DNA from: an uncultured Gammaproteobacteria bacterium
GTDB taxonomy: Bacteria > Pseudomonadota > Gammaproteobacteria > GCF-002020875
Assembly (NCBI GenBank): GCA_963981015.1
Contig: CAXCCG010000002.1
Coordinates: 8,291-72,290, forward strand
Direction: 5' to 3'
Length of the DNA: 64,000 nucleotides
A program made the translations under genes and the position numbers. Under the pieces are notes generated by a model, which saw nothing but the letters and a program-made list of their open reading frames with translations, searched no databases and was not told the origin of the DNA. Shown here piece by piece: positions 1 to 62,002 of this stretch (the stretch's first letter is position 1; the number at the start of each line of letters is the position of its first letter).

Positions 1-151
1 TTCCAGAGTGACTTTTTTGCAGTTGAAGAACGTGGTCAACATAGGTGAGAAAAAAATCAAAATCCTCCCTTGATGCAGCCAACGGTAGCTCTAGCTGTGC
101 TGCCAGTGACTCAGCCTGCTGTTGCGAGGTATCTCCTGCGAGGACAGCCGA

Positions 152-292
152 GAGCCTGCCCGAGAATGGAGAGCCTACTGCGGAAAAGCTGGATTTGGCC
201 ATATTTCATCATCCTTTTCGTTAAACGATGATGAAATCTGTCTCAAATCAGCTTCCCTTCGCTACGACTTCTATTCTCGGACAGGCTCTTAA
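152..292. repeat. Composite palindromic repeat element, full copy. Two roughly 45-bp arms in inverted orientation flank a perfect 11-bp inner palindrome (atttcatcatc / gatgatgaaat). It abuts the TAG stop of the 294..1556 gene.
   Basis: The left arm gagcctgcccgagaatggagagcctactgcggaaaagctgg (152-192) is a near reverse-complement of the right arm ending ...cgctacgacttctattctcggacaggctcttaa (250-292). Related copies occur at 18744-18828, 24915-24945 and 45510-45557. Confidence 0.6.
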
Positions 293-293
293 A

Positions 294-1556
294 CTACCCA
301 GGCTTTTTGATCTCGTTGTGACTGCTGAACTGATAGTCCTTAAAGACATGCTCTGCAGCTGGCTGCTGATAACTACCATCCTCCGCCTGTTTGACGGTAT
401 CTTTCAGGCGATAGGTGTAATGACCGCAAGTCCACACCTTGTATTTACGCATATGAGTACAGAGGCAGATTTTCTCCTCTACAGAGATCTTTTTCTCATC
501 GGGGTGGGCGGCAACAGCCTCATTATAGGCCTCGATATAACTACATTTTCCTTTGCCGTCCAACACATAACCATACGACTCACAGTTGGGACGAATCCCG
601 GAATTGATTGCAGGGCTGCTCTTGAGCATACGCATCGGATATCCGGTTGGAGAGAGGGTATTGACCTCAATATCCTCCTCTTCTGCTGCAAAATAGGCCT
701 TTTTAGCGACCTCCGTCAGACCACACTCTTCAGTGATCGTGAAGCGGGTTGAGACCTGAATTGCCGATGAACCAGACTCCAGATACTCCACACCATCGGT
801 ACCGGTAAAGATACCACCGGCTGGAATCACCGGAATGGTGAGGTCACTCTCACGCAGGTAGGCGATCACCTCTTGAGTAATCGTTGCCAGATCATACTGG
901 GCCCAATCCAACCCAAAACCGAGATGTCCTCCCGCCAGAGGCCCCTCGACCACCACAAAGTCCGGCAGCCGATCCAGACGCGCTGCACGCTTGAGAAATA
1001 GTTTCAATGCACGCACCGAGGAGACGATAATACCGATCGGTGCCTCACGGAATCGAGGGTTCTCTTTAATTAGATCCAGCGACCCCAGATGGAGGCCTGC
1101 ACTCAGGGTGATACCATCAATCCCTGCATCTAGGGCCGCATTGAGGCGTACCTTGAGGGTCTCCTTTGGGTTATTCATGGTGAGCTTCTCCATACAATTG
1201 ATGAAGACCCCCCCATCACCACGCTTGGCTGACATCGCCTCATCAACATGGCGAGTCTGTGCTTCACGCAACTCGCCCAGATCAAACTGGGCAATCGACT
1301 TGTCCGGATTACCGACATTAGCCTTGAACTGCTTCAGTCGATCCCCCACATAGCGGGTCTTGAACTGCTTGTCGATCACGGTCGGCACCATTGCATCGGA
1401 GAGGTGTCCAATGCCGCCCTGTTCAGCAAATACCAGCGCCAGTTCACGCGTAGAGATGTCGACTCCCATACCCCCCAGCATCAGCGGGACATACTCCTTC
1501 CCTCCCAGAGACAGGCGATAGTCATCGATACGTTTGGAGAGCGTTGAGTCAGTCAT
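294..1556 (-). CDS. Nitronate monooxygenase (NMO / 2-nitropropane dioxygenase) family FMN-dependent oxidoreductase with a roughly 100-aa C-terminal Cys-containing extension
   Basis: 420-aa ORF. It has a TIM-barrel NMO-like core (GGMGVDIS, VVEGPLAGGHLG, IPAGGI motifs). The C-terminal tail carries C..C.C....C. Confidence 0.6.
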   Translation of the reverse strand: MTDSTLSKRIDDYRLSLGGKEYVPLMLGGMGVDISTRELALVFAEQGGIGHLSDAMVPTVIDKQFKTRYVGDRLKQFKANVGNPDKSIAQFDLGELREAQTRHVDEAMSAKRGDGGVFINCMEKLTMNNPKETLKVRLNAALDAGIDGITLSAGLHLGSLDLIKENPRFREAPIGIIVSSVRALKLFLKRAARLDRLPDFVVVEGPLAGGHLGFGLDWAQYDLATITQEVIAYLRESDLTIPVIPAGGIFTGTDGVEYLESGSSAIQVSTRFTITEECGLTEVAKKAYFAAEEEDIEVNTLSPTGYPMRMLKSSPAINSGIRPNCESYGYVLDGKGKCSYIEAYNEAVAAHPDEKKISVEEKICLCTHMRKYKVWTCGHYTYRLKDTVKQAEDGSYQQPAAEHVFKDYQFSSHNEIKKPG

Positions 1557-2166: not shown

Positions 2167-4975
2167 TCTCTACACAACGACCACACAGCTCTGGATGGTC
2201 GCTATTACTACCCACATCCTCACGATGGTGCCAGCAGCGTACGCATTTCTCATACCCGGAGGCACTGACCTTCACTTTCAACGAATCCAGTTCACTACTC
2301 TCCGCATCCTCAGGTGCATCACCCATTGGATAAATTCGTGCATAGGAGGTGATCAATACAAAACGCAGTTCATCTTCCAGTTTAGATAACAACGCATAAA
2401 GTGTTTCATCACAATAGAGATCGACTTCAGCATCCAGGCCGGAGCCAATGGTTTTGCTGCTACGTAACGCCTCCAGTGGACGAGCCACCTCGGTACGCAC
2501 CGCCAGTATTTGCCCCCATGACTCGGCATCCAGGTGTCCATCCTCCATCCTGAACAGCCCCTTGTAGAAGGTCTCAAGAAAGACACTATCACTCCGTTCG
2601 CCCGGCAGGAAGCTCCAAATCTCATCAGCAGTAAAGCTGGTGATTGGGGCCAGCCAACGCACCATCGCCTCAACAATGTGATACATCGCCGTCTGGGTAG
2701 AGCGACGCGCCCGACTCTCGCTCTGGGTGGTGTATTGACGATCCTTGATGATATCGAGATAGAAACCACCCATCTCCACCGAACAGAAGTTGTGAATTTT
2801 CTGGAAGATCAGATGGAAGTTGTACTCCTCATAGGCTTCAATAATCTCCTGCTGCAGACGGACTGCATGGTCGACCGCCCAGCGGTCCAGCGACAACATC
2901 TGCTCTGGCTTCAATACATCCACTGCAGGGTCAAAACCATTGAGATTGGATAACAAGAAACGGGTGGTATTGCGGATTCGGCGATAGGCGTCAGCCATCC
3001 GGTGCAAAATCTCGTCAGAGACTGTCATCTCCCCCCGGTAATCGGTTGATGAGACCCAAAGACGGATAATATCAGCACCCAGCTGCTGAATCACCTTCTG
3101 CGGTGCAACCACATTACCAAGCGATTTGGACATCTTCTTACCATCTTTATCGACGGTAAAGCCGTGGGTCAGCACCTGCCGGTAGGGTGCCTCACCATAC
3201 ATTGCTACCGAGGTGAGCAGTGAAGACTGGAACCAGCCACGGTGCTGATCAGACCCCTCCAGATAGAGGTCGGCAGGGCGCGACAGTTGGTTATGACGAT
3301 CCAGTACTGCACGATGAGTGACACCCGAGTCAAACCAGACATCCAGCGTATCCGTCACCTTCTGGTACTGCTCCACCTCATCCCCCAGCAGCTCTGACGG
3401 TTCCATCTCAAACCAGCCATCGATTCCTTGCTGTTCAACACGTTGCGCTACCTCTTCGATCAAACGCACGGTATCAGGATGCGGATTACCACTCTCTTTA
3501 TCAATAAACAGTGCAATCGGCACACCCCAGGTACGCTGACGCGAGATACACCAGTCAGGGCGATTCTCTACCATTCCCTCAATTCTTGCCTGCCCCCAGT
3601 CTGGCATCCAGCGCACCCCCCGAATCGACCTCATTGCATCGCTTCTCAACGCAGCCTGATCCATACCAATAAACCACTGTGGTGTTGCGCGAAAGATGAT
3701 TGGGGTCTTGTGACGCCAGCAGTGTGGGTAACTGTGACGGATCTTCTCCATACAGAGCAGTGCACCCTGCTCATTTAATACCTCCAACACATGGTCATTG
3801 GCCTTAAAGACATGCTCCCCCGCGAAGATTTCAGTACTATCGATAAAACAGCCGTTAGGGCCAACTGGATTATGGACCGGTAAATCGTATTTCATGCCCA
3901 CCACGTAGTCTTCCTGGCCATGACCCGGAGCTGTATGGACTGCGCCGGTACCCGCTTCGAGGGTCACATGGTCACCGAGGATGACCGGTACTTGTCGATC
4001 ATAGAACGGGTGGTTGAGCTGTACCCCTTCCAGAGCCGCGCCACTACAACGCCCAAGAACTTGCGACTCACCAAGATCAGCGCGCTGTAACACCTCTTCA
4101 TATAGCGCTTCAGCCAGCAACAGACGCTCTCTTGCTGCACCGGAACCAATCTGCAGTAACAGATATTCAAAATCGGGATGGAGTGCCACCGCCTGGTTGG
4201 CCGGCAGAGTCCACGGAGTGGTGGTCCAGATCACCATGGAGAGCGGGCCATTTCCCTCAGCCTGCAGATTGCAACGCTGAAGGAATCCGCTTTCATCAAC
4301 CACCTTAAAGCGGACATCAATCGCCGGTGAGGTCTTGTCTTCATGCTCCACCTCCGCCTCTGCCAACGCAGAGCCGCAGTCCGTACACCAGTGGACCGGT
4401 TTCTCTCCCTTGTGTAGATGACCATTTTCAACAATCTTGCCCAGCGCGCGGATGATGTCCGCCTCAAACTGGAAATCCATGGTCAGATAGGGGTTCTCCC
4501 AGTCACCCAGCACACCGAGACGCTGAAAATCTCTCTTCTGCCCATCAACCTGACGTGCCGCATACTCTCGCGCCTTCTGACGGAAGGCCTTGGCATCCAG
4601 CTTACGCCCCGGTTTACCCCATTTTTTCTCCACATTGAGTTCAATCGGTAGACCGTGGCAATCCCAACCCGGTACATAGGGGGTATCAAACCCCATCTGT
4701 GCGCGTGATTTGAGGATCATATCCTTGAGAATTTTATTGACCGCATGACCGATATGAATATCGCCATTGGCGTAGGGAGGCCCATCATGGAGAATGAACT
4801 TTGGCTTATCAGCGCCCTGTTCCCGCATCTTGCGGTAGAGGTCGATCTTCCCCCAGTTCTTCAGGAAGTTGGGTTCACGATTGGCGAGGTTCGCCTTCAT
4901 CGGGAAGCCGGTCTTGGGGAGGTTAAGTGTCTCTTTGTAATTATTTGCCACTGCGTTGATCCGTAAAACTACCAA
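2129..4975 (-). CDS. ileS: Isoleucine--tRNA ligase
   Basis: 948 aa. HIGH-type signature ([12 protein letters not shown]), KMSKS, and a C-terminal zinc finger CxxC...CxxC. Confidence 0.97.
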
Positions 4976-6086: not shown

Positions 6087-7652
6087 CTATTCTACCGTAT
6101 CGTATCGCAGTTGCGCAGACCGCATTCCGAATAGATAGAGCACAGTAAAATAGATCCCGGCAGCAGCTACAATGACCCCGCTCAACAGGGCAATTCGGTA
6201 CCAGAGCAGCTCATCCAACCACCCCTCAAACAGCCCGCCACTCCAGTAGAGAAAGAGGGACATCGCAGTCAACGCCAGCACCACCTGCAGCAGATGATGC
6301 CGCCAGCCCGCTAGCGGTCGATAGACTTGCCGCTGTTGCAAACCACGATAGAGCAGCCATGCATTGAGCAGAGAGGACCCTGCTGTGGCCAGCGCCAAAC
6401 CGGCATGGGGTGCACCATACTCTGCCTGCACCATCAACCCGACGAAGAGAATATTAAGCCCCATATTGGAGACCATTGCCACCAGCCCGTATTTGACCGG
6501 TGTACGGGTATCCTGACGTGAAAAATAGCCATTAATCAGCACCTTTACCAGAATAAACCCCACCAGACCAAGTGAATAGGCCATCAAGCTAACAGCCGCC
6601 ATATCAACATCGTAGGCCGTAAATTCGCCACGCTGAAACAGCAGAGCCAACATCGGTTCAGCCAGTAGAAAAAGCCCTGCACTGGCGGGGAGCGCAATCA
6701 GCACTACCAACCTTAATGCCCAATCCATGGTGCGGTTAAAGGCTTCATGGTTCTCTTCCGCAAAGTGCCCTGAAAGTTTGGGAAGGATCACTGTAGAGAG
6801 GGCGATACCGAAGACTCCCAATGGAAACTCCATTAAGCGGTCGGAGTAGTAGAGCCAGGACATACTGCCTGCGGTAATCAATGAGGCGATCACCAGATCC
6901 AACAGCAGATTGATCTGTGCCACTGAGGCACCGAACAGCGTAGGAATCATCAGTTTGATGATTTTGCGTACCCCGGAGTCGTGCCAGCGAAAACGGGGGC
7001 GTGGCAACATCCCCAATTTGAGTAGTGCTGGAATCTGGAATAGCAGCTGCACCACTCCACCGACCAATACCCCCCAGGCCAGTGCGGTCACCGGCACCTC
7101 CATCATTGGGGAGAGCCAGATTGCAGCAGCAATCATCGAGAGGTTGAGAAAGACCGGCGTCACCGCTGGAATGGCAAAACGGCTATAGGTGTTGAGGATA
7201 CCACCAGCAAAGGCGGTGAGTGAGATCAGCAGCAGATAGGGGAAGGTAATGCGTAACATGCCCGTTGCCAACTCGAAACGGTCACTCTCACCGACAAATC
7301 CAGGGGCAAACAGCATGATAAAGAGTGGTGCTGCGACCACGCCGATGACCGTCACCAGCAACAGTACCCCCCCCAATGTACCGGCCACTGCATCCGTCAA
7401 CTGTCGCACCTCCAGCTCTGATCCATTAGAGCGCCTCTCCGACAGTACCGGCACAAAAGCTTGCGAGAAGGCCCCCTCGGCAAACAGTCGACGCAGGAAA
7501 TTGGGGATTTTAAAGGCGACCACAAAGGCATCCATCACCCCTCCCGCCCCAAAATAGCGGGCAAAGACAATATCACGCACCAACCCAAGAACACGGGAGA
7601 GCATGGTCATCAGGCTGACAATCAAGGTAGACTTCAGTAGTTTAGTGGTCAA
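6087..7652 (-). CDS. murJ: Lipid II flippase MurJ (MviN)
   Basis: 521 aa polytopic membrane protein. N-terminus LSRVLGLVRDIVFARYFGAG is typical of MurJ. Divergent from rpsT as in Pseudomonas. Confidence 0.9.
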   Translation of the reverse strand: MTTKLLKSTLIVSLMTMLSRVLGLVRDIVFARYFGAGGVMDAFVVAFKIPNFLRRLFAEGAFSQAFVPVLSERRSNGSELEVRQLTDAVAGTLGGVLLLVTVIGVVAAPLFIMLFAPGFVGESDRFELATGMLRITFPYLLLISLTAFAGGILNTYSRFAIPAVTPVFLNLSMIAAAIWLSPMMEVPVTALAWGVLVGGVVQLLFQIPALLKLGMLPRPRFRWHDSGVRKIIKLMIPTLFGASVAQINLLLDLVIASLITAGSMSWLYYSDRLMEFPLGVFGIALSTVILPKLSGHFAEENHEAFNRTMDWALRLVVLIALPASAGLFLLAEPMLALLFQRGEFTAYDVDMAAVSLMAYSLGLVGFILVKVLINGYFSRQDTRTPVKYGLVAMVSNMGLNILFVGLMVQAEYGAPHAGLALATAGSSLLNAWLLYRGLQQRQVYRPLAGWRHHLLQVVLALTAMSLFLYWSGGLFEGWLDELLWYRIALLSGVIVAAAGIYFTVLYLFGMRSAQLRYDTVE

Positions 7653-14200: not shown

Positions 14201-15127
14201 TCCCTCTCTCTTCCAGTGGAACTCCCCTACTTTCAAACCCGGTTCATCCTTGAACGCCTCGTCCCGCCGCAGAGAAGCCCGTCCCTTTTCCAACTTCCCG
14301 GAGAGCCACTCCCCCCAAAATTCAATATGGCCCGTCCCCTGGGCCAGACCTTTCATCTGGTTGGCTTCGCCACCAATCAGGGTAACCAAATGGGTCGAAG
14401 GGGCTTCAAGATACATCAGCCCATCCCAACCATTTTCACTCAGCAGATCACCAAACCACTCCAGCTTGAGTGTAACGGGTGAAGGGTTCTCTCCATCCAG
14501 CACCAAGGTTCCCGTTGCCTGATGGCGATAACCTGAGTTGATCCAATCGAAATGAATATCTGCTAATTTCCACTGTAATCCGCTTTCACTTCCCTCTCTC
14601 TGTTCTTGTAACAACTGCAGTGTTGCATTCTCAACAACCACACTTGGTTGCCTCAATAACCAGGAGAGGAGAACAGGCATATTACCCTCCTCTGCTGTAT
14701 TGATTTGTGCCATCGCAAGAATGGATTGAAATTGATGCTCGAATGCTATCGAAGGGTTACGCAGCAGAATGCCGGTAGATATCAGCTCTCCTGCACTGAG
14801 TGAGTGCAGCAGGTCAATCTTCAAGCTTCCACCAGCCAGCGTAACCTGAGCACTACCTCCCCCCTCTTTCTGCAGGCTGACACCAACCACTTCAATCTGT
14901 AAAAACCGACCATCCAGCTGTGCAGTGACCCCCTCAAACTCAATCGGCACACCCGTTTCTGCCTGCAGCCAATCTCTGATCTCTTGCTTATAAAAAGGCA
15001 GTGCCGGAAGAGAGAGGCGTAGCAGTATCACCAACACAGCCACAACCACTAACCCTGTTGAACACAGTATCCAGAACGTACCCCAAAGTGAACGTAAAAA
15101 TTGCTGGCTAGACGGGTACAACATCAA
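11252..15127 (-). CDS. yhdP: YhdP-family (AsmA-like) inner-membrane envelope protein
   Basis: 1291 aa with an N-terminal TM anchor. It sits between rng and tldD exactly as in E. coli (rng-yhdP-tldD). Confidence 0.8.
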   Translation of the reverse strand: MMLYPSSQQFLRSLWGTFWILCSTGLVVVAVLVILLRLSLPALPFYKQEIRDWLQAETGVPIEFEGVTAQLDGRFLQIEVVGVSLQKEGGGSAQVTLAGGSLKIDLLHSLSAGELISTGILLRNPSIAFEHQFQSILAMAQINTAEEGNMPVLLSWLLRQPSVVVENATLQLLQEQREGSESGLQWKLADIHFDWINSGYRHQATGTLVLDGENPSPVTLKLEWFGDLLSENGWDGLMYLEAPSTHLVTLIGGEANQMKGLAQGTGHIEFWGEWLSGKLEKGRASLRRDEAFKDEPGLKVGEFHWKREGEVAWRLQMEKLAWGGESDKQSHPTSALVKYLQDKTGQELILGAVDRIRLVPSPALSGLYATVMHGESGALVSGDLHDVKFRSYPNKESLFNQIESKMVLSNISVQGVKQAAGLGVAGVNGKLHLNEQEGFFMPANQPIFASLQHYYPDPQQLTLEQGLVSWRRRSRALLLSFRGIEGEIGALRLQGGGQLLLPGGGQSPFLDVNAHIQVQRIADLIQQLPERQLRPELVGWLNESLLSGKLIDGKIKLKGALNQFPFEQGEGLFQADLQVQDLYLKYADEWPTVTHSQAEIHFNNGAMRAKLKEGKLDGHPIHNISIHSDKIVDGPFEVHGQLVSESPKLLRTLENTPLSAQARQLNSVVTMSGYALLELDVVIPVDESPLQVDGRVELHDNQLNVAALDLQIDQLKGNVEFNHDGVMIEGVQGVMLGGPVLITAFTSETEQQPEVVIGLEGALQGAALEHWFGLAEMKAPLFQSESKTEWSGRLKIQREDIDIHLYSELQGVQLNTPEPFNKSAEARWPATLSMKVRSGEVESMQVSMPEHLHATLYKGKAAAPWKGRLFFGDREQTLPAGELRDGLELIGALEEIDLGAWYDLSVLMRQEGAVNHGLNSVRFGHLLLTADRASLFGQKLDQLVLKVERREQQSIHVELSSEQIEGSILVPHDSAEKWVVDLSHLQLGEEVSGMEEDSAVVVQSQRVEFDPSKMPAMDLSSQKTVINGIDFGTLALQAHSTKSGLFFDDVVLKSDVMNVSAQGSWLQREGKPISKFNINLYGDQLGSILSLFGYGGDIDRGKSSIHVKAEWPDRPTEFSLSTMEGELELSVEKGQLKDVDQGIGRVFGLLGIHTLVRRLTLDFSDLTDQGFPFDTIYGTFSLLDGNAHTRNLVLDGPAAKIKVEGRTGIVAQDYDQIVAVSPKISETLPATGALLAGPAGAVVGSVVLLYQKLFSEDEIALTRYTLTGQWDDPQLEEIRKVSAPVFEPEYP

Positions 15128-18075: not shown

Positions 18076-18726
18076 CTACTCTTCTAATGGGTATTGATTA
18101 ATAACAGATGCGCGAATTGTATCAGGCAATAGAAAGCGTGGGTCCTCACCTTGTGCAACCATTTCCCGAATCACCGTTGCAGAGATCTCCAACTGCGTCA
18201 CCGGCAGTAGCAAAATTCTCCCCCCTTGCTGCTGCGGTAGCTGGTAGAGATCCGTTACCTGATTACTTTCTCGTGCAGCCAACAACTCTGCAACACGCCC
18301 CTGTTGCGGCCTCTCAAAACCGGGACGGTGAGTGACTACAATATGGGCAAGACTCAGCAGTTCATCCCAGCGGTGCCAACTCTCAACCTGCAGAAAGGCA
18401 TCCATCCCCAAAATCAGACAGAGTGGGCGCTGTGAAAATGATGTAACCAGTGACTCTAGTGTCACCACCATCCAGGAGGGAGTGTCACGCTCCACCTCGC
18501 GCAGATCAACCACAAACTGCGGCACCTCTGCAGCCACCTGCTGCAGCCACTCTACACGCTGCTCCAAAGAGGCCAACGGTTGTGATCGATGTACTGGAAT
18601 CTTACTGGGGATCAGCCGCACATGATCCATCCCCAACTGTTCACACACCTCCAGTGCAGGACGCAGATGTCCGAAGTGGACCGGATCAAAGGTGCCGCCC
18701 AGAATTCCAATGGGTCGCATCGCCAC
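18076..18726 (-). CDS. nadD: Nicotinate-nucleotide adenylyltransferase
   Basis: 216 aa with the GGTFDPVHFGH motif. Confidence 0.9.
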   Translation of the reverse strand: MAMRPIGILGGTFDPVHFGHLRPALEVCEQLGMDHVRLIPSKIPVHRSQPLASLEQRVEWLQQVAAEVPQFVVDLREVERDTPSWMVVTLESLVTSFSQRPLCLILGMDAFLQVESWHRWDELLSLAHIVVTHRPGFERPQQGRVAELLAARESNQVTDLYQLPQQQGGRILLLPVTQLEISATVIREMVAQGEDPRFLLPDTIRASVINQYPLEE

Positions 18727-18743
18727 TCAGCACCCTATGGCAT

Positions 18744-18828
18744 GAGAATAGACGAAATAACCATTCGACAAAATTTGTCTCAAATCAGCTTTCCCTCGCT
18801 ACGACTTCTATTCCCGGACAAGCTCCTA
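18744..18828. repeat. Partial/degenerate copy of the palindromic repeat element (right-arm type). It supplies or abuts the proA TAG stop.
   Basis: tgtctcaaatcagctttccctcgctacgacttctattcccggacaagctcCTA is about 92% identical to the right arm of the copy at 245-292. Confidence 0.55.
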
Positions 18829-20079
18829 ACGGATATGACCATCTCCCAGTACGATGAATTTCTGCGAGGTGAGTCCCTCCAGCCCTACAGGACCACGTAC
18901 ATGAATCTTGTCGGTACTGATACCTATCTCCGCGCCCAGCCCATACTCAAAACCATCGGCAAAGCGGGTGGAGGCATTGACCATTACAGAGCTGGAGTCT
19001 ACTTCCGCCATAAAGCGTCGCGCACGTGCATAACTCTCGGTGACGATTGATTCTGTGTGACCTGAACTGTGCTGGTGGATATGGTCCATCGCAGCGTCGA
19101 TATCTGTCACCACACGAATGGAGAGTACCGGAGCCAGATACTCTTCATCCCAGTCTGCCTCGGTTGCTACAACCACGTCCGCAAGGATCTTTTGTGTCTG
19201 TTCACAGCCACGTAGCTCTACCCCCTCACTTTGGTACTGCGCTGCCAGTGGAGGCAGCACCTCTGCAGCAATACCCTCTGCTACCAACAGTGTCTCCATC
19301 GCATTGCAGACCCCGTAACGGTGGGTTTTTGCATTAAAGGCGATATCAATCGCCTTCTGCTGATTCGCCTGATCATCAATATAGACATGACAGATCCCGT
19401 TCAGGTGTTTAATCACCGGAATACGGGCACTCTCGGAAATACGTTCAATCAACCCCTTACCACCGCGCGGGATAATCACGTCAACATAGCGACTCATGGT
19501 AATCAACTCACCGACGGCTTCACGATCTGCCGTCTCCACCACCTGCACCGCATCAGAGGGAAGCCCCGCCTCTGTCAACCCCTGATGGATCAGTTTGGCA
19601 ATCGCCTGATTGGAGTTGAATGCCTCGGAACCACCACGAAGGATTGCCGCGTTACCCGATTTGAGACAGAGTGCTGCCGCATCTGCAGTCACATTGGGGC
19701 GCGATTCGTAGATGATACCGATGACCCCGAGAGGAACCCGCATTTTACCGACCTGAATACCGGAAGGACGATAGTTGAGACCAGAGATCTCACCCACAGG
19801 GTCCGGCAGCGTCGCAATCTGACGCAACCCTTCAGCCATGCCACTGACCCGCTCCTCATTTAACGCCAGACGATCTAGCAGTGCAGCATCGAGTCCATTT
19901 GCTTTACCGGCATCCAGATCTTTCTGGTTCTCTGCCAACAGCGCACTCATTGACTGCTCCAACAGAGCTGCGGTGATCTCCAGTGCACGATTTTTATCTG
20001 TAGTCTCTGCACGAGCCATTGCACGACTCGCACTGCGGGCCTGCTCACCCACCTGTTGCATATACTGTTTGATGTCCAT
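18826..20079 (-). CDS. proA: Gamma-glutamyl phosphate reductase
   Basis: 417 aa aldehyde dehydrogenase-fold ProA. Position between nadD and holA as in Pseudomonas. Confidence 0.93.
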
Positions 20080-24914: not shown

Positions 24915-24945
24915 AAGCAGAAGTCGTAGTGAGGACAAGCTCCTA
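24915..24945. repeat. Short fragment of the palindromic repeat family that abuts the TAG stop of the histidine kinase gene
   Basis: gaagtcgtag...ggacaagctcCTA shares the core of the 18776-18828 copy. Confidence 0.4.
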
Positions 24946-45204: not shown

Positions 45205-45509
45205 AAAAACCCACTATACGCCACTTTTTCCCAATATCAACAAAATTTGAATTTTTTCCCCACACGACTCAAAACCTTCCGAAACCCCCAATTCACCTAT
45301 AACATTTTATAAATAATTTAAATATCATTGAGTTATAAGGTTTTATAGGGGTAATGACTGAACAATAATTTTCTCTGAATGATCGCCATAACCGGCCTAA
45401 CAGGACGGAGTATAGAAACATCAACTTAGCATTCAAAAATCGGGGGGGATGATGCTCAACAGCACCCTAAAATAGTATCCGGGAGCGGCCCGAACCTCAT
45501 TGACTGCTA

Positions 45510-45557
45510 GAGCTTGTCCGAGAATAGAGAATCTACTGCGGAAATCTGGGATGGTCA
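45510..45557. repeat. Half copy (left-arm type) of the palindromic repeat element, just downstream of the rnpB 3' end
   Basis: gagcttgtccgagaatagagaatctactgcggaaatctgggatggtc is about 80% identical to 152-198. Confidence 0.5.
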
Positions 45558-60753: not shown

Positions 60754-62002
60754 CTACCAACTGAGGCTCACACCACCGTTGACCAATGGCGTCCCTGCTG
60801 CACTATTCCAACTGGTTCCAAGACTGAACTGCGTAGTATCTGTCAAACTACCCTTCATCCCGACCGCCACACCTGTTTCTCCTTCATAGTAGCTAGTACC
60901 CATACCAATCGAAAAGTGACGATTCGGGGCTGGAGGTGGAAGTGCTGCCAATGCTGCCACTGAAGCAACCCCTCCATAGGCGATATCGAGCTGACTGCGG
61001 TTAACCCGCATCCATTGGATCTACACCATCTGCAACCCCCATTACACGGCTGGGAGCACCTGTTATAGGGTGGGCAAAACTGGCCCCCTTTTCGTCCAGA
61101 GTAATATAGGTACTGTTTACACCTCCAGAGAGTATTGTTTGATCATTTTGTACCACCAAGCCATGTGCAATACCGGTTGTTGGGTTATTAACTGTCAGAT
61201 TGATCGCCCCATTGGTTGCACCTGACAGGCTCAAGCCGTCAACAATTAACCCCCCTGTAATAGAAGTACCGGTACTATCGACCACCAGGGATTTCATACC
61301 ACTTTGGAGCGTAACTGCATTACCGTTGACTACAGTAGCTCCTGTGGTGTTCCCTACATTTACTGCACCCGTACCGGTACCTAAATTTGTTGTAGCGGCC
61401 GTAGTTGCATTGATGTTAGTTACCCCAATGATATTGGTTGTACTGCCGACATTATCATTACCAATATTGGTTGCCCTTGCCACACTATTATCAGTATTGA
61501 TATTGGTTGTGGTGCCTACAATATCGGTAGTCACACCTTGTACTAATGTATTGGTATCTCCAACAGTAATCTGACTGGTGCTACTGGTCACCAAACTAAT
61601 ATCTCCTGCAGTCACATTACCAATACTGACTGCTCCAGTGCCATTCACAAAATCGGTCACTGAATTGATTGAGGTCGCTCCATTCTGTCCCACTGAAAAA
61701 AGATTACTATTACTATTATTGTTGATCAAAAAGCTATCCGTTTTGGCTGTCATCGCTGTGGTATCCAGAATTACATTATTGGTACTCCTGGCCGCATCAT
61801 CTGCATAAAGACCCACTTCTGATCCACCACCTGTTCCAACATAGGTCGTCACCAAACCTGCACTTGAATCAGTCAGTGCCCAGCCACTGGCAATATTGTC
61901 ACCTTCTCCAACCAGTACCATAGGTGCTGCACTCAGCTGCATCGCAACCAGCATTCCGATCAGTACTATGTTTTTCTGCAGTGTCTCAATTTTCACGTTC
62001 AT
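60754..62002 (-). pseudogene. Trimeric autotransporter adhesin (YadA-like). A +1 frameshift separates the passenger (61001..62002) from the C-terminal beta-barrel anchor (60754..61011).
   Basis: The passenger has a signal peptide and Thr/Asn/Gly-rich head repeats, ending ...GVADGVDPMDAG*. The next frame encodes a YadA-anchor ending ...GVSLSW. Deleting one C from the CCC run at 61005-61007 restores a continuous ...DPMDAVNRSQL neck. Confidence 0.65.

Follow-up and report, generated by a model that had tools for sequence, protein, structure and literature searches.

A CTAG-flanked palindromic repeat family of about 160 bp with ends like those of IS1182-family insertion sequences

The Correia elements of Neisseria and the ERIC sequences of Enterobacteria are intergenic imperfect palindromes of 100-160 bp, much like the element described here. 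They are co-transcribed with flanking genes, can form long hairpins and can alter the expression of their neighbours, and processing by RNase III or RNase E has been shown for them. Both are unrelated in sequence to the present family; Correia duplicates TA and, to our knowledge, a transposase has been established for neither. Within the IS1182 family, ISPse1 showed direct repeats of 4 bp when it was trapped (PMC3281130), MITEs of 160 bp in Methanosarcina, likewise with a direct repeat of 4 bp, have been attributed to the family member ISMac2 (PMC3852290), and palindromes serve as targets of some IS1182 members (PMC5678879).

Here we analyse a repeat family that is present four times in the window, by which we mean the whole 64-kb stretch of DNA under study, and that recurs in many other genomes. 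Neither the searchable literature (full text by terminus sequence; MITE in Endozoicomonas) nor Rfam yielded a name or description of this 160-nt family, which is apparently undescribed and unnamed, yet is an ordinary kind of element. We consider it likely to be a non-autonomous MITE of about 160 bp, of IS1182 type and targeting CTAG. The element is non-coding and forms an imperfect palindrome over its whole length, and its outer 19-20 bp (GAGCYTGTCCGAGAATAGA) would serve as the terminal inverted repeats (TIRs). An IS1182-family DDE transposase encoded elsewhere would bind these ends and move the element into CTAG (less often TTAG, CTAA or TTAA), leaving the site on both sides. The copies that survive would be those at C-TAG stops, where the stop of the upstream gene is preserved, or at the few intergenic CTAGs, and side effects would include the splitting of the gene pairs NMO/rsmJ and proA/nadD and the use of an internal ATG as the rsmJ-like start.

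Copies in the window and their gene context

All four repeat sites that the earlier note had reported from the bare sequence are present at the positions that it gave (Table 1). The window contains four matches to the 19-nt terminus GAGCYTGYCCGRGAATRGA where 0.18 are expected by chance, and none of 100 shuffles reached four. The right arm of copy A aligns to copy B (18771-18829) over 59 nt at 90% identity (BLAST E = 5.6e-18), and its left arm to copy D (45509-45544) over 36 nt at 86% identity (E = 1.4e-6). Remnant C is not significant by BLAST alone (E = 0.37); the 13-mer TAGGAGCTTGTCC is found exactly both at the end of copy B (18816-18828) and in remnant C (24933-24945), where 0.13 such coincidences are expected.

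Table 1. Positions of the repeat copies and associated features in the window
Feature	Position	Strand	Remark
Copy A	152..288	-	nearly complete, 137 nt between GAGCC and GGCTC ends
Copy A, left TIR	152..170	+	GAGCCTGCCCGAGAATGGA, exact pattern match
Copy A, right TIR	270..288	-	GAGCCTGTCCGAGAATAGA (minus-strand reading), exact pattern match
Copy A, flank	289..292	.	TTAA, YTAR variant of the usual CTAG
Copy A, central palindrome	203..237	.	perfect, 11 bp with 13-nt loop; tip of long hairpin
ATG inside copy A	200..202	-	rsmJ-like start according to gene callers
TAG stop of NMO-like gene (294..1556, Pfam NMO)	294..296	-	5 nt beyond copy A core
Copy B	18744..18825	-	decayed, internal deletions; occupies the 105-nt proA/nadD spacer
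Copy B, TIRs	18807-18825; 18744-18752		first intact; second reduced to GAGAATAGA
Copy B, flank	18826..18829	-	TTAG; last three bases are the TAG stop of proA
Remnant C	24919..24942	-	first 10 nt of TIR (GAGCTTGTCC) joined to 14 nt of inner arm
Copy D	45510..45557	+	single arm: intact TIR 45510-45528 plus about 30 nt
Copy D, CTAG	45507-45510		overlaps first element base

Copy A had been described as a complete copy spanning 152-292. The repeat is there, whereas its core ends at 288 (GGCTC), followed by TTAA, one further base and then the CTA of the stop codon. In the alignment to the family, copy A lacks about 22 nt of the central core; its better orientation is the minus strand (nhmmer profile score of 96.5 bits, against 37.5 on the plus strand), and its arms (151-217 and 223-289) are 72% complementary. 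The palindrome reported at its centre is indeed perfect (atttcatcatc at 203-213 and gatgatgaaat at 227-237). The flanks of copy A count against the CTAG model: the bases at 148-151 are CCGA, which no longer match the TTAA on the other side, and the stop codon lies outside the flank. Damaged or missing ends, internal deletions and these mismatched flanks mark the four window copies as old and immobile.

About 94% of the window is coding. Since 47 of its approximately 54 genes are on the minus strand, the placement beside minus-strand genes, to which attention had been drawn, is uninformative. Copy A lies between the NMO-like gene and an rsmJ-like methyltransferase gene (PF04445) that runs off the start of the window, copy B between proA (18826..20079) and nadD, remnant C between two convergent genes, where it adjoins the TAG stop (24943-24945) of a HATPase_c-domain gene, and copy D between the ftsZ start and the rnpB 3' end. 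The view that the copies sit exactly at TAG stops thus holds for B and C, both of which abut the stop, and fails for A, which is five bases (TTAAA) away, and for D, which is not at a stop.

At both of the gene junctions compared with relatives, empty sites were found. In two relatives with a 91% identical NMO (L127 and L132) the NMO stop leads straight into the rsmJ coding sequence, and in three others (L210-L212, with ProA 90% and 87% identical) the stop of proA and the start of nadD are adjacent or overlapping (TAATG, TAGATG; around position 2757), as compared to a spacer of 105 nt (18720-18829), containing copy B, in the window. A further relative (L129) has a different NMO/rsmJ spacer, its rsmJ beginning with MSVSIAITSHDSSQQ. 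Judged from these alignments, in which protein identities of 87-91% leave the exact duplication unreadable, copies A and B are insertions, each lying between two genes that follow each other closely in the relatives. They separate gene pairs that in those relatives are translationally coupled.

Two observations concern the same junctions. A relative with an 89% identical NMO (L128) carries a degenerate TIR (TAG-CCACCTGTCCGGGAATAGC) right after the NMO stop, at about 3757-3800; set against the empty sites of the 91% identical relatives, this means that the junction is a hot spot that was hit more than once independently, or else that the element has been lost. The window proA lacks the terminal Gln codon, and encodes 417 residues compared with 418 in relatives.

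Copy A also appears to reach into the coding sequence of its neighbour. Gene callers place the rsmJ-like start at its internal ATG in six contigs of the same population; an AGGA lies 9 nt upstream of this ATG and an in-frame TGA two codons upstream. The element accounts for the first 17 codons (MAKSSFSAVGSPFSGRL), and the PF04445 domain begins at residue 36 of the 271-residue protein. The next in-frame ATG, GTG or TTG is a TTG some 40 codons further on, and a protein initiated from it would lack conserved residues. From this we infer that in this lineage rsmJ probably owes its start codon and the 17 residues at its N-terminus to the element. Both the AGGA and the ATG are located at the hairpin tip, and initiation could be limited as a result. 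The earlier note had dismissed the open reading frames across the copies as artefacts of the repeat; this is right for the plus-strand frames 228..752 and 18589..19050, which are antisense artefacts and illustrate how the element creates spurious ORFs in annotation, and it does not apply to the minus-strand frame that opens at 202..200.

Elsewhere in the window (61429-61525), three copies of a 28-nt unit (TGATATTGGTTGT...ATTATC) are spaced 33-36 nt apart; they lie in a large gene and probably encode a peptide motif that is repeated there.

Family distribution, CTAG flanks and termini

A terminus-pattern scan covering one genome per species recovered at least 119 loci. The matches listed, in which mismatches were allowed, contain at least 83 complete short copies, mostly 160-162 nt long, and at least 70 solo or truncated termini, many of them at contig ends, which argues that the element breaks MAG assemblies. 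The family consensus is CTAG-GAGCYTGTCCGAGAATAGA...TCTATTCTCGGACARGCTC-CTAG, with this TIR at both ends of the 83 complete copies and its first 19 pairs nearly invariant. The hosts include Sedimenticola, Thiohalomonas, Thiohalocapsa, Endozoicomonas, Ca. Sororendozoicomonas, Thiotrichaceae, Methylococcales, Arenicellales and lucinid symbionts, as well as Methylophaga, Kangiella, Alcanivoracaceae, Desulfocapsa and Mariprofundaceae MAGs, and the copies in unrelated genomes number in the hundreds. Genuine copies are also found on contigs binned to non-proteobacterial MAGs, namely of Polaribacter, Eudoraea and Fermentibacteria (L007, L056, L057), reflecting either horizontal spread or binning errors.

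The interiors vary. Subfamilies combine the common TIR with different interiors (e.g. the copy at 3074-3214 of L101, and the Desulfocapsa copies), miniature versions are only 40-60 nt long (L107, L108, L039), and some copies stand back to back or in tandem with a single CTAG in common (in L022, 1653-1814 with 1817-1978 and 6279-6440 with 6443-6604; also in L044, L050, L072 and L079). Such arrays can build up because each insertion recreates CTAG at its own ends and, taken together, the varied interiors, the miniature versions and the back-to-back copies fit a transposase that recognises the ends only. A pair of TIRs 1045 bp apart in L101 was considered as a possible insertion sequence and rejected: one TIR is a solo terminus, the other belongs to a 141-nt copy in its own right, and the ORF that separates the two is unrelated.

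These properties bear out the description of the repeat as MITE-like: it is bounded by terminal inverted repeats and by flanks of four constant bases, occurs in numerous copies across many genomes, is polymorphic for presence or absence at a given site, is mostly 160-162 nt long and has no transposase ORF inside or adjoining the copies. The alternative label, REP-like, finds no support: at 160 nt the element is far longer than a REP unit (palindromes of 20-40 nt), its ends match a DDE-type IS family and its flanks are CTAG.

The flanks are largely constant. The four bases outside GAGC are C in 86%, T in 80%, A in 91% and G in 94% of cases, while positions -5 to -8 are random, and a full CTAG is present at 98 of 139 termini. 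Non-canonical flanks take the forms TTAG...CTAG (L066, L073), ATAG...CTAG (L067) and CTAG...CTAA (L108). Since CTAG is itself palindromic, a 4-bp duplication (CTAG) and a 2-bp duplication (TA within C-TA-G) cannot be told apart in the sequences; the TTAG...CTAG and CTAG...CTAA flanks would fit the 2-bp duplication at least as well as the 4-bp one. The commonest departure from CTAG is CCAG, at 15 of 139 termini (L007-L125), and 22 of the 28 non-T bases at -3 are C, changing CTAGG to CCAGG. This is the direction of change expected from very-short-patch (Vsr/Dcm-type) mismatch repair.

The same target accounts for the proximity to stop codons. CTAG is depleted five-fold in the window (35 sites, e.g. 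at 15108, 50616 and 55145, against 173 ± 13 expected from dinucleotide-preserving shuffles); 29 of the 35 are intragenic, three are stop codons and three are intergenic. As CTAG holds TAG on both strands, insertion at a C-TAG stop leaves the stop of the upstream gene intact, whether CTAG is duplicated or only TA, in which case the G of the element itself follows. With CTAG so depleted and about 94% of the DNA coding, insertions survive either at such stops or at one of the few CTAGs between genes, which is why some copies lie exactly at TAG stops. An ORF of at least 100 codons ends at 19 of the 178 TAG-bearing termini in the loci retrieved (14 of the 83 complete copies) and at 36 of 1154 control CTAG strands from these loci, an approximately 3.4-fold enrichment at element termini. 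The proposal that the element targets gene 3' ends is therefore replaced by a simpler one, with only 19 of 178 termini closing a long ORF: stop-codon placement is a by-product of the CTAG target, which often results when the choice of target is combined with purifying selection but is no rule of the element. A simple CTAG-target rule thus explains the odd regularity of copies placed 'exactly at TAG stops'.

In a search of plasmids with the terminus, the 18-mer CCTAGGAGCCTGTCCGAG matched elements of about 1.47 kb at both of their ends; these lie on plasmids of Xanthobacter, Methylobacterium and Mesorhizobium. Two of these (L207 and L208) have the ends CTAG-GAGCCTGTCCGAGTAA...TTACTCGGACAGGCTC-CTAG and encode a 444-residue protein that scores 378 bits against the NCBIfam model NF033551 (IS1182 family transposase; cut-off 270) and carries the Pfam domains DUF772, DDE_Tnp_1 and DDE_Tnp_1_6. 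ISKpn6, an IS1182-family element found next to blaKPC, likewise ends in CTAG-GAGCCTGCGCGGCAGA...CGCAGACTC-CTAG (right end also given as GCGCAGACTC). The 160-bp element therefore has IS1182-family ends and CTAG flanks like those of members that encode NF033551 transposases. Both kinds of element meet on the conjugative plasmid pMPC6-328K of Pseudomonas sp. MPC6 (L206), where a complete, unannotated MITE (4003-4166) has its flanking CTAG in common with a truncated element of IS1182 type (4167-4500), whose end reads CAGCCTGTCGAAC... and in which the C-terminus of the transposase is still recognisable on the opposite strand.

Among 48 ORFs of at least 180 residues inspected in or beside solo termini, ten of which were read, none was transposase-like; one was Fic/DOC-like by eye. 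A tblastn search of all fetched loci with an IS1182 transposase returned only the plasmid loci and the C-terminal fragment in L206, no partner with the full 20-bp ends was found in the approximately 700 kb of MITE-bearing loci, and a scan of viral contigs with the 19-nt terminus gave no match. A protein search with the alphaproteobacterial transposase produced, among the 120 matches listed, only alphaproteobacterial relatives of at least 75% identity. The insertion sequences whose ends match come from Alphaproteobacteria and agree with the MITE only in the outer 14-18 nt, which counts against the IS1182 assignment.

The element might instead have been mobilised by another transposase that targets CTAG or TA, either of the IS630/Tc1-mariner type, which duplicates TA, or of the IS5 group, which targets YTAR with a 4-bp duplication, as in the pair MITEPsy1/ISPsy2. 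The constant CTAG flank is compatible with both. The non-canonical flanks keep the inner G/C and vary in the outer base, just as a TA duplication with GGAGC...GCTCC ends predicts, and for MITEPsy1, trapping has demonstrated insertion into CTAG or YTAA sites and the duplication of 4 nt (PMC3189936). Against this stand the termini. The sole autonomous elements found with such ends encode IS1182-family transposases, the ends of MITEPsy1 and its IS5 relatives (GGAAGGTCTGAAAAAGCC) are unlike the present ones, and the terminus searches brought up no IS630 or IS5-group element with the present ends. We therefore regard mobilisation by one of these groups as unlikely, and retain an IS1182-type transposase as the probable agent. 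On that assignment, a widespread bacterial MITE family would join the few that have been linked to IS1182-type elements.

Hairpin conservation and possible roles at the RNA level

The fold predicted for the element was borne out: the minus strand of copy A folds with -73.2 kcal/mol, z = -9.3 relative to 200 shuffles. In an alignment of 21 diverse copies, 33 of 60 pairs show compensatory changes, compared with 16.3 ± 2.3 after shuffling (none of 500 shuffles reached 33) and 7-15 in slid controls; in the internal helix the proportion is 26 of 34. The palindrome is clearly maintained across the family. The covariation between the arms means that the hairpin or palindrome itself is maintained, something that a MITE model in which only the ends matter does not require. 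In a DNA palindrome, arm covariation does not separate RNA from DNA constraint, and the constraint could be a requirement of the transposase, which would fit the structure sensitivity of IS1272.

The two strands are not equivalent. In all 39 copies compared, one strand folds about 18 kcal/mol better than the other. In simulated decaying palindromes the strand difference has a standard deviation of about 10 kcal/mol and an asymmetry of this size arises in 9-18% of cases, and on these simulations a founder effect would fit the observed asymmetry. G-U exceeds A-C by 227:25 cells when the structure predicted from one strand is used; with pairs predicted from both strands the ratio drops to 72:47 cells, or 17:12 pairs, which is not significant, so that the excess is for the most part an artefact of the one-strand prediction. 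The G-U positions 28/137 and 35/130 are nearly fixed in the family alignment. Non-palindromic blocks (CGTAGCGAGGG; TTTGAGGCGAATAG...TATTTAACGAAAAT; CCGCAGTAGG; columns 25-32, 65-100 and 133-139, respectively) are kept in nearly all copies, and the helices between them covary.

A stable, covarying hairpin after genes might point to a structured RNA selected by the host, that is, an mRNA stabiliser, processing site or terminator, the transposon-like ends being incidental. Besides the stability of the hairpin and the compensatory pairs of the internal helix, the conserved non-palindromic blocks and the better folding of one and the same strand in every copy speak for it. The placement of the copies speaks against it. 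Their orientation relative to flanking genes is random (9:11 for co-directional copies, and 16:16 for copies at most 60 nt downstream of a gene), and copies in divergent promoter regions are about as numerous as those between convergent genes (9 versus 7). Nor do close relatives have the element at either of the two occupied sites that were compared. Rfam 15 gave no match for window positions 100-340, and for the copy in L041 only chance matches to miRNA hairpins far below threshold. The two RNA-like signals also weaken on inspection, as the G-U excess fades to 17 versus 12 and the strand asymmetry is of a kind that a founder effect produces. The suggestion that the element doubles as an intrinsic terminator was not upheld: the stem is not followed by a T-run, a gene apparently begins within copy A, and the orientation of the copies shows no preference. 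The family consensus ends in GGACAGGCTCCTAG, likewise without a T-run, and no terminator-like site is present on either strand of window positions 1-600. Overall, a host-selected RNA is in our view still less probable than mobilisation by a transposase of another group.

Lineages that propagate may have been selected to keep a long hairpin in one particular strand, its wobble pairs fixed and its internal loops conserved, making a single-stranded form part of the spread; this is a speculative proposal, to which we give only a small chance. If true, that form would be either an RNA molecule or DNA folded into a hairpin or cruciform, on which a structure-sensing transposase of IS1182 type would act, and it could explain the unusual reach of the family across Gammaproteobacteria, Desulfobulbales-type and Zetaproteobacteria MAGs. 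Finally, that the similarities within the window arose by chance or by local duplication, as the E value of 0.37 for remnant C taken alone would allow, can be dismissed with near certainty given four termini where 0.18 are expected, the E value of 5.6e-18 for copy B and the hundreds of copies in unrelated genomes.

Comparison with known systems

The closest counterparts of the element are IS1182-family insertion sequences such as those of Xanthobacter autotrophicus pXAUT01 and Methylobacterium sp. DM1 pLVM1, which are identical to it in the outer 14-18 nt and have CTAG on both sides. ISKpn6 also has CTAG-GAGCCTG ends and is identical to it in the outer 8 nt, again with CTAG on both sides. However, these insertion sequences are 1.4-1.5 kb long and encode a transposase of about 440 residues, whereas the present element is 160 bp long and non-coding, and further inward than the outer 14-18 nt the sequences are unrelated. 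As ISKpn6-like members of the IS1182 family flank resistance genes, stating the CTAG target and the end motif is of practical use.

The MITEs of Methanosarcina acetivorans that are attributed to ISMac2 (160 bp, IR 26, DR 4; PMC3852290) agree, by their published description, with the present family in presumed parent family, size class and 4-bp flanking repeat; their host is an archaeon, whereas the hosts of the present family are bacteria of many orders. IS1272 (PMC5678879) belongs to the same transposase family as presumed here and also prefers palindromic targets. It differs in that it replaces stem-loops of variable sequence without duplication, while the target of the present element is a fixed CTAG that is kept on both sides. 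Lastly, MITEPsy1 of Pseudomonas syringae (PMC3189936) is unlike the present element in length (100 nt), in its ends (GGAAGGTCTGAAAAAGCC) and in its attribution to ISPsy2 of the IS5 family, and yet resembles it in inserting at CTAG or YTAA with a 4-nt duplication and in lying at gene 3' ends, where it alters alleles.
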